Position numbers and translations under genes: made by a program. DNA of 64,000 bases from Adineta vaga (Eukaryota > Animalia > Rotifera): positions 14,119,769-14,183,768 of the forward strand of contig CP075492.1 in assembly GCA_021613535.1 (NCBI GenBank). The letters run 5' to 3'. Each line of letters begins with the position of its first letter. Positions within the stretch are counted from its first letter, which is position 1. Of the stretch, positions 28,325 to 35,678 are shown piece by piece. Below the pieces are notes generated by a model. That model ran no database searches, had not been told where the DNA came from, and saw only the letters and a program-made list of their open reading frames with translations.

Positions 28325-30878
28325 TTAGCTATTAATCGGATCGTTGCTAAGAAGCAGATGTTGAATAAACATATCCCATGATGAATCGTTGAGTTCTAAT
28401 TGTTTACAATAGATACCATGACGTTGGCTGGTATGCTGATAGAAATCAATCGCTTTGTATATCTGTTCGTTCATATTAGTAGATGAATTCTTGCAAATAT
28501 AGTCCTAAATGGTATTGAGAAATTTAAAGGAAAATCAAAGAAGATTTAATTTACTTTAATTTGTTCGATATTAAATGGAAATTCAAATGTATCATGATGT
28601 AAAATTTGCATTTGAAGAACGAGCCATAAGAGGATAACACCTGTACCAATCAAACGAAGAATTTCATTTTGTAAATTTAATGCTAATAAAATGATAGTTC
28701 ATATTTCTTTATAGTTTATATTGATAGTACGCAGTCGCTTACCGAGTGATTTTAAACCATGTTCGTTTAAATAATACTCAAGATTATGAAAAATAGTCTG
28801 ATCAAGGTGAAACACATCAGCTAACTCTTTATTTAATAGAAATGATCCATTCTATATTCGAATATTAAGAACATGTAACAAATAAATAATGAAATTTCGA
28901 AGAATTCTTACTTCAGATTGAAGTTTTAGTAGTTCATTCATCATTATTGGTGTCGATTGAATATCTTTCAATTGTCGGAGAAATGAAATATCAGTTGTCT
29001 TTTCTAAATGCAAATGCTATAACAATGTATAACAATGACAAGAGATAAATTACTAGAGAAATTCTGTATTATAGTCTGAACATGACCAGCAAGCTGCGAT
29101 AAAAGATTTCAAGATATAGTACAAAATCAAATTAGAATACGAACTTGATACAAAGGATCATCTGATTTGCGAGCATAAACTATATAAAGAAAACAAGAAT
29201 TAAATATTATTTATATTGGTTTAAAACTGACCCGATTTAGCTACAGCATTGGCTTGACTTTCAACGTATGCAATATGTTGTTCAATCCAGTCTTTTGTTG
29301 ATCCTAGATAATATAAATAATATTCTATCTATAGGTAAATCGCTGTCGAACTTTGATGATTAGAATCAACAGTATATGAAACTTTGGCACCTGAACGTGC
29401 TTCTTCAGCATCAACATGAAGTATACCATTTGCATCAATATTCATGCGAACAGCTATTTCAAGTGTTTGAGCAGCAAAGTTGTTTGTTAAACCAGAAAGA
29501 TTGAACTCTCCCAGAAACATCTACGATGAAACAAGATCATTTAAATCATATTTTAAACTGATTGAAATATGACGTACATTGTATTTTGTCAGAGTATGTT
29601 CACCTTCAAAAATGCGAATGGTAGCTGTTGTTTGATAAGCATATGCATTTGTAAATATTGACCAAAGTTCAGTACGAACTGGAATAGTTGTATTGCGACG
29701 AATAAGTGTATGCATATGACCATGAATATCTTCAATGCCCAATCCAAGTGGACAAACATCGAGAAGTAATAAGTCACAGATAGGAGTAATGCATGCTGCA
29801 TCATTCTTTTTTCTTAATCCAAAGTAAAATATTATCGATGAGAAATAGTGGTTCTTGTGAAACTTTGTAATACTTACAGTTTTTCTTGTCTACATTCATC
29901 TCCATCGAGAAGTGGTTTATTCGTAGGTACTGATCTACACTTACTGATCTTTAACTTTGGTTCTAATGCAATCGATGGCCCCATACAGCCACTACTCATT
30001 TGCTGTGTATTCGATGCTGCCTCTTCTGCTAATGATATTGTTCGATATGCTCTTTCTGGTGATAGTAGTCTGGCAGGTGAATTAGAATACAGACAGTTAG
30101 TATTAAGGTTGTCCATACGATTGAATGTTGTTTCATATTGTGGTACTCCTCCGGATAGCTCCTCCTCTATGCTTGACATCGGAGAAACGGATGCTGGTTG
30201 ATTTTGAAGCAACTGAGATGAAAGTTCAAGAGTATCTGTGAGAGTGAGACGAGACGATTCACCATTTTCACCGCCAACACAATCATTTTTACAGGCTGAA
30301 TCAGTTCGTTTTGATCGTAGTTCTGATAACCGGCTTGCTAAAAATAAAGATTGTTTACTGCTATATTTACATTTATGAAGATACTTTCATAAGTATGAAT
30401 ACAGAAACAAGTTCCGCACATCTCATGTTATCTTTAAATAGTATTACTAACTAAAGTCAATATAGGATGTTTCATCCATACAGTCTAAAAAGCCAAGATC
30501 GACATTATTCCAATCATCTGCTGTTTCTAATTCTTCTAGCACATGTTGCCATGGACAGTCTTCCTTTGTGAGTTCTTCCTCAATCTTGTCAAGATACATC
30601 ATATTATCAGTAGTTGGAAGCTGTTTGTTACATATTGTTGATGAACTTGCTGTTGCTGCTGCTGTTGATGGTTGAAGGAAGTCATTGGTATAATCAGGTA
30701 CGTCATCTAGCTAATAAAGAAACAGTCTAAATATAGAGTATTGAATTAGGTACCGAAGTGCATAGTTTTCTTATCTCTTCTGTTTTTTCATTTATAAGTA
30801 CTAAATTGTTCGCTTGACATTGTTGTTCTAATGCTTGTCGTTCTTCTGCAGTTGCACCAGCCATTTCCGTTATTATAT
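28325..30878 (-). CDS. HSP70 substrate-binding-domain-like exons, probably the 3' part of the PARP4-like gene (alternatively a separate downstream gene)
   Basis: Exon ~29818..29578 encodes [78 protein letters not shown]. After a 57-bp intron (donor AAT|GTACGT), exon 29520..~29350 encodes MFLGEFNLSGLTNNFAAQTLEIAVRMNIDANGILHVDAEEARSGAKV. Together these are a clear HSP70 SBD-beta match (LLLLDV, GIET, RNTTIPT, EGER, DIDANGIL). Upstream exons 30878..30804, 30713..~30445 and 30339..29876 were mapped with consistent phases. More 3' exons run to the stop at ~28325. A donor GAC G|GTATAT at 30941 and the acceptor at 30879 join this frame to the PARP4-like exon ending at 30942. Confidence 0.55.
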
Positions 30879-30896
30879 CTATTTTTTTCAAATTCA

Positions 30897-33900: not shown

Positions 33901-35678
33901 ACCGTGAAAGAATTCCAAGAAAATTAGTATATTTTGAACCATGGAATAATTGTTGTTGATGGGATAATGTGGTAGAAAAATTAAAAGTATCAGTCTGTTT
34001 AGCGACACTAAATATGTTATGAATAACGATCTGCTCACCACTTAGTATGAACAAATAAGTCTATATTATATTTATCAAGTTAAATTTCAAATATATTTTA
34101 CCTGTCTGTTGATGATTCAATAAGTTTTACAATATTCTTATATTCAGGTGTTGAACTAGATAATGTTTCAATGTAACATTTTAATGCTCGATATTTTGCT
34201 TCGATCGGTGCTTTCATATTCCAATTCGTCAGTTCATTGACTGTCAGCATATCTCGAAGCATCTTTGAATTGTACAGACGTTCTAGTAGAGCAAATCAAA
34301 AGAATATATCAATACATACTTGACATAAGTCTAATTTTTCAATCAATACTCGACGATTGTTGATGAGATCAATTTGATACTGTGATCGATGTGGTAAGAA
34401 TGAATAGAAACGAGTTACAGCAGTAGGATCATTGGTAGATTTCAATTCCAGTAGTGCAGCTTCAGCTTCAATGATCTATACAATAATTTTGGATATGAAC
34501 TATATTTTATACGCATGTAGAACAATGAATGTGAATACCGTTTTAAGAGTGATGGATTCCAGTGATATACTCAACATTTTATTCAGATCACCAATGGATT
34601 CTAACCAAATTGATTCAATGAATTGACACACATTTTCGTCAAGTATTTGTGCATCAAGACGATGAGTAAATAATGACTAAGTACAATAAGATCATTATTC
34701 AGTTATTGATTCAATATCATTTTGCTTACGCGTAATAATAATTTTGAACCTAATTTATTCGGTAATATGTCACGAATTCGTGTTATACGTGGCATTGTAG
34801 ATATTCGATTATAGTAAGATGCAAATAATTGTTGTTGTTCATTCGGATCATTACCAAATGCATACTGTATTAAAACATTCTTATCGTGTTGCTGCACTCG
34901 TTCATCAACGATCTGTTTTTCATATCGAAATCGTATACGATAATCACTTGTCTTCGAATTGTAGTATTGTTCAGGAATAATTTGAAGTTCGAGAGCAAAG
35001 AAAACAGTTGAACTATCATTCGTTTCCTATATTATGAACAATAAAACTTGTAGAAATTCGAACATAAGTATGTACTTTGAAAATTGCCCATTTACCAATC
35101 GTACAATGTGTTAATTCATCAAAATGAGGTAAATTTCTATCGTCTGCATTCCATAGTTTGATCTTATTTAAATCGAGTTTAATGATTTTAGTCGCATTTG
35201 CTCGAGATTCTATATCGATTAAGAAAATATAAAACCAATGCAAATAAAAAATACAATACAGTACCTGTAAGAGTAATTGTGCCAGTCTTAGTAAAATTGT
35301 CTTGATCTTCAACTGATTTGATACTAAATTTATTAATATCGATCGATATTTGATCAGACGATAGGCAACGACATTGATACACATATTCAACATCGATTAC
35401 TGGTATACCAAGCTTTTTAGCACGACGTATTTTATAACTATCCACATTGTTTGTAGTTAAAACATAATCAGTCTTAAAGAAAATTTAAACTATGTGTTTA
35501 CGGACGAGAAGAGATAGAAGGAAAACAAACATACACTAGCGGTAAGAATATATGAGATCTGTGCGTGTTGTTCTCGTAGATAATTGATCAAGTCTTTTTT
35601 AGCTTTGAAGCTTTTTTCATGACCAAGTTCCAATACAATAGTTTTTCCGTTGAATGGCGATATACGTGAAGAAGTCAT
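30934..35678 (-). CDS. vault-PARP (PARP4)-like multi-exon gene: BRCT - PARP catalytic - VIT - VWA
   Basis: ATG at 35678. BRCT-like exons lie at 35678..35490 and 35445..35188 (…SYKIRRAKKLGIPVIDVEYVYQC). The PARP catalytic exon is 33886..33491 (GYGIYFSDSVSTSLQY, RRLLCICRVALGES). The VIT domain is at 33079.. (MYQVYHNTSSVPIEAKYVFPLDENSTVCGFEAHINNKVIKGVVKEKEQAKQEYREAIEKG…). The VWA domain has the MIDAS motif IIFIIDVSNSMDG and LVSDGHIND (32300..31251). Frame changes between ORF blocks imply many short introns that were not all mapped. Confidence 0.7.

Follow-up and report, generated by a model that had tools for sequence, protein, structure and literature searches.

A Bdelloid PARP4 Orthologue with a Probable HSP70-Derived Substrate-Binding Module Inserted before Its MVP-Interaction Domain

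In a stretch of 64,000 nucleotides from the genome of the bdelloid rotifer Adineta vaga (contig CP075492.1; hereafter the window, whose numbering is used throughout), positions 28325-35678 of the minus strand harbor a gene related to PARP4, the vault PARP. A preliminary reading of this region, based on the sequence only (the sequence-only reading), had proposed that the gene continues in frame, through a splice joining 30942 to 30878, into exons encoding the substrate-binding domain (SBD) of HSP70. According to the analysis reported here, the locus is probably (at a rough estimate, 80%) one single gene, i.e., a bdelloid PARP4 orthologue with an HSP70-derived module inserted between the VIT-VWA body and the MVP-interaction domain (MINT or MVP-ID). 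Only the fused gene model holds the full canonical set of PARP4 domains in the canonical order; the HSP70 piece represents an insertion into the spacer of the protein rather than a new C-terminus.

Gene Structure and Domain Architecture

The splice sites of the model were picked through homology to the Rotaria sordida protein P0008 and the Adineta ricciae protein P0001 and, further downstream, by hand. Here, P-numbers indicate homologous proteins and L-numbers homologous loci (L001, L002, and L007 from A. ricciae, L003/L004 from R. sordida, L005 from R. magnacalcarata, L006 from Didymodactylos carnosus, and L008 from a metagenome). The model runs from the ATG at 35678 to the TAA at 28327-28325, and its coding sequence of 5841 nt, without internal stops, specifies 1946 residues; the splicing of the mRNA is presumed to follow this model. 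The features recognized in it are as follows (all on the minus strand):

28325..35678: whole coding region, 27 exons and 26 GT-AG introns
35371..35660: BRCT domain (residues 7-82; exons 1-2), Pfam PF00533, E=4.8e-5
33493..34145: PARP catalytic domain (residues 396-552), Pfam PF00644, E=5.7e-24, and alignment with human PARP4
32801..33233: VIT domain (residues 621-743; Pfam match 633-743), Pfam PF08487, E=5.9e-38
31824..32380: VWA domain (residues 884-1035; Pfam match 885-1035), Pfam PF13768 and PF00092
30878-30754, 30710-30452, and 30337-29878: linker exons 16-18 (residues 1313-1593), BLASTP match to A. ricciae P0092
29236..29781: HSP70-derived module (residues 1605-1751; exons 19-21), Pfam PF00012 positions 381-523, E=4e-26
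28328..29054: PARP4 MVP-interaction domain (residues 1778-1946; exons 24-27), profile match to human PARP4

The order of the domains is BRCT, PARP, VIT, VWA, a linker of about 290 residues, the HSP70 interdomain linker followed by SBD-beta and helix A, and, lastly, MINT. The Pfam run on the conceptual fused protein agrees with the BRCT-PARP-VIT-VWA part and the HSP70 SBD previously recognized by eye upstream and downstream of the junction, respectively. Moreover, the H-Y-E residues of the catalytic domain are in place (LFHGS at 441, GIYFSD at 481, and DNEYAIY at 552) and aligned with those of human PARP4, and the best PDB matches in this PARP4-type catalytic region are the PARP4 catalytic fragments 8sx1 and 8swy. 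Colinearity with A. ricciae P0092 (2063 residues) extends over the full length of the model.

The 26 introns of the model measure 43-114 nt, with a median of 57 nt, and have a GC content of 25%, that of the exons being 34% and that of the AT-rich window about 31%. The previous claim that 63 nt represents the modal intron length at this locus holds approximately: three of the introns measure 63 nt, and another three 50 nt.

The Junction between Exons 15 and 16

The two features involved in the junction are the following:

30942..31250, minus strand: exon 15 (ending in ...EFEQKMRD plus G), kept in all homologues
30879..30941, minus strand: intron 15, phase 1, 63 nt, GTATAT...AAATAG, containing the stop met on read-through (30936-30934) and the ATG 30897

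On the minus strand, the sequence across the junction is ...GAA CAG AAA ATG CGA GAC G^GTATATAAAATGACT...GAAAAAAATAG^AT ATA ATA ACG GAA ATG GCT... On the donor side (...ATG CGA GAC G^GTATATAA) the GT occupies 30941/30940 and an in-frame TAA stop falls at 30936-30934; on the acceptor side (...AAAAAAATAG^) 30879 is the last base of the AG, and coding resumes at 30878 with AT ATA ATA ACG GAA ATG. The removal of these 63 nt joins G and AT into an Asp codon, after which the protein reads IITEMAGATAEE, continuing with IITEMAGATAEERQ. The stop, the donor, the acceptor, the length of the interval, and the restoration of the frame were, hence, all found as the sequence-only reading had described them.

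The peptide encoded across and after the junction, KMR(D/R/N/H/Q)-D-I-x-x-E-M-x-x-A-T-x-E-E-R-Q, is continuous in every PARP4-like homologue, including the paralogues devoid of the SBD; therefore, the exon starting at 30878 belongs to the PARP4-like protein. Furthermore, the same GAT codon is split by a phase-1 intron in A. ricciae L001 and L007 (58 nt in each) and L002 (55 nt), as well as in D. carnosus L006 (71 nt). The sequences of these introns have diverged among L001/L007, L002, and L006, and read-through meets a stop in each of them. In L008, a JGI metagenome contig from an environmental bdelloid that does have introns further downstream, no intron is present at the junction, and the open reading frame (ORF) reads ...GKVQIDIMIEM... 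On these comparative grounds, it is as good as proven that 30941-30879 is a genuine and ancient intron. The in-frame splice from 30942 to 30878 into the exons leading to the HSP70 SBD is, thus, corroborated by the conserved position and phase of the intron and by the intronless L008, as well as by exon 17 and by the A. ricciae orthologue, both of which are discussed below.

As an alternative, the sequence-only reading had considered a separate gene starting from the ATG at 30897. This candidate was ruled out: the ATG, in frame with the downstream exon, lies inside intron 15, whose position is conserved, and has no counterpart in L002 or L006.

Continuity of the Coding Sequence through the Linker

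The case for connecting the PARP4 body with the SBD relies on the linker exons, and particularly on exon 17 (30710-30452), a single ORF of 86 codons joining two homology halves. The N-terminal half (LDDVPDYTNDF...QLPTTDNM) aligns to P0003 and P0020 of Rotaria sp. Silwood2, where it follows the exon-16 peptide; the C-terminal half (DCPWQHVLEELETADDW..GFLDCMDETSYIDF) aligns to A. ricciae P0001 and P0092, and in A. ricciae it is followed, past a phase-1 intron located at the very same point, by TSRL.E.RS.R, the remaining linker, and the SBD. The introns following exons 16 and 17 occupy the same positions in A. ricciae, and one BLASTP high-scoring pair connects residues 1313-1570 of the window protein to residues 1312-1595 of P0092 (E=6e-37). 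Exon 18 is an open block of 153 codons with a GC content of 41%, whose motif YRTISL..EAAS...SGCM recurs in Rotaria P0113 and P0035, immediately before the SBD. When the linker and the C-terminal tail were scanned with Pfam, no domain was retrieved from exons 16-18; the conserved islands of the linker are DIxxEMxxATAEERQ, QLPTTDNM, DPWxxxLxELxTxDDW..GFLDCxDETSY..TSRLxExRS, and YRxISL...SGCM.

The spacer also varies in content among the bdelloid copies. In exon 16 (30878-30754), the window copy lacks about 26 residues (...DDE/DLLSSYD/EISD..FKxLT...) that are present in the A. ricciae and Rotaria homologues; in A. ricciae, this stretch is spread over three small exons, and a single exon of 125 nt is left in the window. 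Moreover, a calmodulin-like EF-hand block, absent from the window copy, is found in the linker that connects the PARP4 body with the SBD in A. ricciae P0002 (residues ~817-955; L002 ~2813-3325) and at the C-termini of Rotaria P0003 and P0020. It begins exactly at an exon start with ADQLTEEQIAEFKEAF, corresponding to calmodulin residue 2, and could be either the outcome of exon capture or a nested calmodulin gene that the predictor merged into the host protein model. Lastly, a 14-3-3 fragment (PF00244, E=1e-12) occurs in the same spacer of the PARP4-SBD paralogue P0106 from D. carnosus (residues 1202-1264), echoing the PARP4-like proteins with 14-3-3 of other eukaryotes (PMC4245714).

The HSP70-Derived Module

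The module opens, near an exon start, exactly with the HSP70 interdomain linker CDLLLLDV (residues 1605-1612). This octapeptide is near-invariant in the bdelloid copies examined, the variants being ELLLLDV in P0041 and LLLID in P0033 and P0092. The SBD-beta motifs RNTTIP, FEGEH.LTKYN, and IDANGIL are all present, and the module closes in helix A (RSTKDWIEQHIAYVES). In the Pfam scan, the HSP70 match begins at profile position 381, no nucleotide-binding domain (NBD) being matched upstream of it, and stops in helix A, at about profile position 523; downstream of this point, the lid helices B-E and the EEVD tail are absent, and the MVP-ID starts about 30 residues beyond the end of the match. Without an NBD, the module cannot run the ATP-driven chaperone cycle by itself. 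In the peptide-binding pocket, the positions that we take, by eye from the alignment, to be equivalent to DnaK I401, F426, A429, Q433, and I438 are retained, and the one equivalent to V436 is changed to A.

As for the origin of the module, a PDB search matched it to the solved SBDs of BiP, HSPA1A, HSC70, and DnaK with E-values from about 1e-24 to 1e-22. The bit scores of the window copy are 89 with BiP, which is marginally the best, 85 with HSPA1A/HSC70, and 84 with DnaK; those of the less derived SBD from D. carnosus are 120 with cytosolic HSPA1A, 105 with BiP, and 88 with DnaK. Since the least derived copy scores best with cytosolic HSPA1A, the SBD probably originated from a eukaryotic, cytosolic Hsp70, although the window copy marginally favors BiP. 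A bacterial origin, through horizontal gene transfer, was also considered and is not favored, given the best match of the least derived copy.

The C-Terminal MVP-Interaction Domain

A Pfam scan of the C-terminal tail matched no family, and PF26156 was not reported by the Pfam copy used; the identity of the MVP-ID, therefore, rests on profile searches. A profile built on exons 24-27 and two A. ricciae homologues has its best PDB match in human PARP4 (11jf/9bw6/9bw7), residues 1574-1703 (E=1.1e-4), the human MINT domain corresponding to residues 1562-1724 (PMC12280208). When 1.84 billion representatives were scanned exhaustively with HMMER, the profile of these exons recovered vertebrate PARP4s with E-values from 1e-5 to 5e-4, including those of Dromaius (1.2e-5) and Rhinatrema (5e-4), as well as vertebrate PARP4 transcripts. 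Using the whole model as the query, human PARP4 residues 207-1217 matched residues 219-1236 of the model (E=5e-193), and a second phmmer domain paired human residues 1571-1705 with residues 1797-1940. In the source databases, the homologues bear the precomputed annotation PF26156 PARP4_MVP-ID, located after HSP70. The comparison of three bdelloid with two fish C-termini by hhalign, on very shallow alignments, gave E=0.05.

According to these data, the contrast drawn by the sequence-only reading with human PARP4, said to end in an MVP-binding region instead of a chaperone-type domain, was mistaken: the rotifer protein also ends in an MVP-interaction domain (exons 24-27), and the SBD is internal. 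By analogy with human MINT, the rotifer domain would dock on the inner wall of the MVP vault shells. Among the residues that make contact in human MINT, S1614 is unchanged in the rotifer domain, K1618 is replaced by N, and R1689 by Q (alignment vs. PMC12280208); as two of the three named contacts are not conserved, we infer vault binding from domain homology only. MVP genes are present in A. vaga and are stress-induced together with PARPs, MVP and many PARP genes being induced after desiccation and radiation (PMC10809525).

Homologues, Synteny, and Selection

The close protein matches of the gene are all from Adineta, Rotaria, or Didymodactylos, and its exons are about 77% identical to A. ricciae at the DNA level. 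Fused full-length predictions are available for A. ricciae (P0092, 2063 residues, UniProt A0A815D1S1) and D. carnosus (P0102, 2098 residues, and P0106, 1849 residues), and a partial one for R. magnacalcarata (P0098), so that the fused architecture is predicted in three bdelloid genera. The named MVP-ID matches that also carry an SBD are all bdelloid, the SBD adjoins the MVP-ID in all the bdelloid copies recovered, and six out of seven distinct SBD-MVP-ID loci examined are preceded by a PARP4-like part on the same strand. L005 of R. magnacalcarata shows this arrangement.

The sequence-only reading had suggested synteny in related genomes as a check; the A. ricciae locus, annotated as one protein of 2063 residues, does show synteny with the window. 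In both, a phospholipase A2/questin-oxidase gene lies upstream, in divergent orientation, and a seven-transmembrane (7TM) gene downstream. The upstream neighbor (window 35998-37280, plus strand, vs. L007 6-1156), whose Pfam matches in A. ricciae are Phospholipase A2 and questin-oxidase, shows a DNA identity of 72-78%, and its conservation supports the orthology of the two loci.

The Nei-Gojobori nonsynonymous and synonymous values (pN/pS) against P0092 are 0.156/0.467 for the SBD, 0.199/0.703 for the MVP-ID, 0.412/0.700 for the linker, and 0.165/0.606 overall; as dS is saturated, the dN/dS ratios are to be taken as rough. In every segment pN is well below pS, a pattern that shows each of them to be under purifying selection. 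The identity of the SBD across genera is 70-86%, vs. 25-38% for the flanking linker.

These values also bear on a third possibility, i.e., that what remains of an HSP70 copy, decaying or nested, lies in a PARP4 intron and that its SBD exons are skipped in the mRNA, the real protein being an ordinary PARP4. The SBD sits where human PARP4 has a long disordered spacer, and the calmodulin and 14-3-3 blocks show that foreign sequences are found in the same region of other paralogues. A skipped remnant is, however, at odds with an SBD that is intact and in frame, without stops over five exons, with a pN well below the pS and a cross-genus identity far above that of the linker, next to the MVP-ID in all the bdelloid copies recovered, and flanked by exons whose phases fit the fused frame. 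We consider this scenario highly improbable.

One Gene, Two Genes, or Several Products

Some data weigh against the single fused gene. No RNA-derived contig spanning any junction was found in the protein-database searches (the Logan matches P0083 and P0105 are vertebrate PARP4 transcripts), and the fused proteins of the other bdelloids are gene predictions only. Intron 16 measures only 43 nt, the conservation of the linker is poor (38% identity), and the AlphaFold2 model of the SBD plus MVP-ID (R. sordida P0116, 11 alignment rows) has a mean pLDDT of 35.5, which makes it unusable. The two unconserved MINT contacts and the saturation of dS belong to the same side of the balance. Lastly, R. sordida P0035, R. 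magnacalcarata P0036, and Rotaria sp. Silwood1 P0039 are separate annotations with the order low-complexity-SBD-MVP-ID, and in R. sordida L003/L004 (1-14298) no PARP4-like sequence occurs within 10 kb upstream of P0035 (666 residues). P0035 could represent an independent "vault-targeted SBD" copy, unless its upstream part is located further away; stand-alone SBD-MVP-ID copies or internal-start isoforms are, hence, possible.

The separate Rotaria annotations and the R. sordida locus L003 are also the points that favor two tandem genes on the same strand, perhaps operon-like: a truncated PARP4-like gene ending at or soon after 30934 or 30727 and a distinct SBD-MVP-ID gene starting from the ATG at 30897, from a spliced-leader (SL) trans-splice acceptor at 30878, or from a Met in exon 17 (30602). 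Bdelloids do use SL trans-splicing, the ATG at 30897 is in frame, and R. sordida P0008 (1384 residues) is predicted to end about 19 residues past the equivalent of exon 16. Nonetheless, the boundary does not fall at 30934/30897, since the peptide after 30878 is found in every PARP4-like paralogue, L008 is intronless at this point, and the ATG within the intron is missing from L002 and L006. Exon 17, as one ORF, links both halves of the linker, and a PARP4-like part precedes, on the same strand, all but one of the seven distinct SBD-MVP-ID loci. In addition, splitting the locus would leave the upstream PARP4 without an MVP-ID and would endow the downstream gene with PARP4's own C-terminal domain. 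Two genes, therefore, appear unlikely.

The same locus might also yield several products, that is, the fused protein together with a shorter isoform, either PARP4-like, through intron retention, or SBD-MVP-ID, through an internal promoter or a trans-splice site. This would fit the homologues predicted both fused and split, the stand-alone-looking copy of R. sordida, and the stops that read-through of introns 15 and 16 meets within 2-9 codons. The DNA, however, does not require it, and the split predictions may reflect linker exons of low complexity that are hard to model; we regard a mixture of products as decidedly unlikely, and the single fused gene as the preferred explanation.

Surroundings of the Gene

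The distance between the PARP4-SBD gene and the 7TM gene downstream of it (window 12588-13521) is about 15 kb (13521-28325), vs. about 1 kb in A. ricciae (L007 10754-11772). The additional 15 kb or so include a tandem repeat of 93 bp at 19598-25048 (58.6 copies, 94% matches, no indels), whose plus strand is almost C-free, with a GC skew of about 0.9. No ORF of at least 150 residues is contained inside the array, and one of 163 residues (24564-25055) overlaps its last ~480 nt; the array looks like a non-coding satellite. The extra segment also includes minus-strand ORFs at 27198-28193 that look, by eye, like remnants of a BED-zinc-finger/hAT transposase.

Possible Function and Significance

To our knowledge, the roles of vaults and of PARP4 are still unclear, and the domains directing PARP4 to its targets are unknown. 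In the bdelloid protein, the H-Y-E ADP-ribosyltransferase, judging from its residues, would be active. Isolated SBDs bind extended hydrophobic peptides; this, together with the absence of an NBD, makes a tethered peptide clamp the likeliest role of the module, which, by analogy, would hold extended hydrophobic segments independently of ATP. Such a clamp could deliver unfolded clients or cargo to both the vault and the PARP; alternatively, the SBD could bind the LLLL-type linkers of neighboring molecules or of free Hsp70. Through MINT, the protein would be anchored inside the MVP shells, as in human PARP4 (PMC12280208), and the stress induction of MVP and PARP genes in A. vaga (PMC10809525) makes a link between stress and proteostasis plausible.

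Putting these elements together, we tentatively suggest, as a doubtful but possible scenario, that the bdelloid vault PARP might be a vault-resident, ATP-independent "holdase" or cargo receptor: pinned by MINT, it would capture hydrophobic segments through the SBD, or recruit Hsp70 via the LLLL linker, and the PARP would ADP-ribosylate the captive. Bdelloids are noted for surviving desiccation and radiation. If true, this scenario would link vaults to proteostasis under these very stresses, and the apparently stand-alone SBD-MINT copies of Rotaria would correspond to this receptor devoid of its enzyme.

An HSP70 SBD kept in PARP4 under purifying selection across three bdelloid genera offers a testable hypothesis on the recognition of cargo or clients by vaults, and would represent a rare natural case of this domain operating without its ATPase. 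Furthermore, the VWA-MINT spacer appears to accept foreign modules (the SBD here, calmodulin and 14-3-3 in paralogues), which bears on the engineering of MINT-based vault loading. From a practical viewpoint, the split Rotaria entries named "PARP4 MVP-ID C-terminal domain-containing protein" may be truncated models.

Comparison with Known Systems

The rotifer module shares with canonical HSP70s (HSPA1A/HSPA8, BiP, and DnaK) the DLLLLDV linker, the eight-strand SBD-beta, the motifs RNTTIP, EGE..LTK.N, and DANGIL, and the start of helix A. Canonical HSP70s also possess the NBD, the lid helices B-E, and the EEVD tail, all of which the rotifer module lacks; moreover, their PPAPRG loop is replaced by TNNFAAQT, and two residues are inserted before strand 4.

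Among the bdelloid predictions, A. ricciae A0A815D1S1 (P0092, "Poly [ADP-ribose] polymerase") and D. carnosus CAF0997286 (P0102) have the same architecture as the window gene. The former is its syntenic orthologue, with an overall amino acid identity of 71%, and is annotated as one protein. The window copy lacks the ~26 residues in exon 16 and has a shorter linker. The two are automatic predictions without a published description, and no paper combining PARP4, HSP70, and bdelloids was retrieved from the searchable literature; the architecture of a PARP4 with an internal HSP70 SBD is known only in the form of automatic, unannotated database predictions.

Human and vertebrate PARP4 (PDB 9bw6/9bw7/11jf and 8sx1) exhibits the same order of BRCT, PARP1-homology catalytic region (H-Y-E), VIT, VWA, long spacer, and C-terminal MINT. 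In the human protein, the spacer between VWA and MINT is only disordered and proline-rich, whereas that of the rotifer carries the HSP70 linker, SBD-beta, and helix A; in addition, the MINT contacts K1618 and R1689 of human PARP4 are not conserved in the rotifer protein. Bdelloids have many PARP4 paralogues, in contrast to the single copy of most animals (PMC4245714). PARP4-like proteins with appended 14-3-3, actin, and ubiquitin-related domains have been described by Perina et al. 2014 (PMC4245714), and the theme that they share with the rotifer protein is a Clade-5 PARP with VIT-VWA gaining an extra protein-interaction module. That survey does not include an HSP70 SBD, and the rotifer module is internal, located before the MVP-ID, rather than appended.

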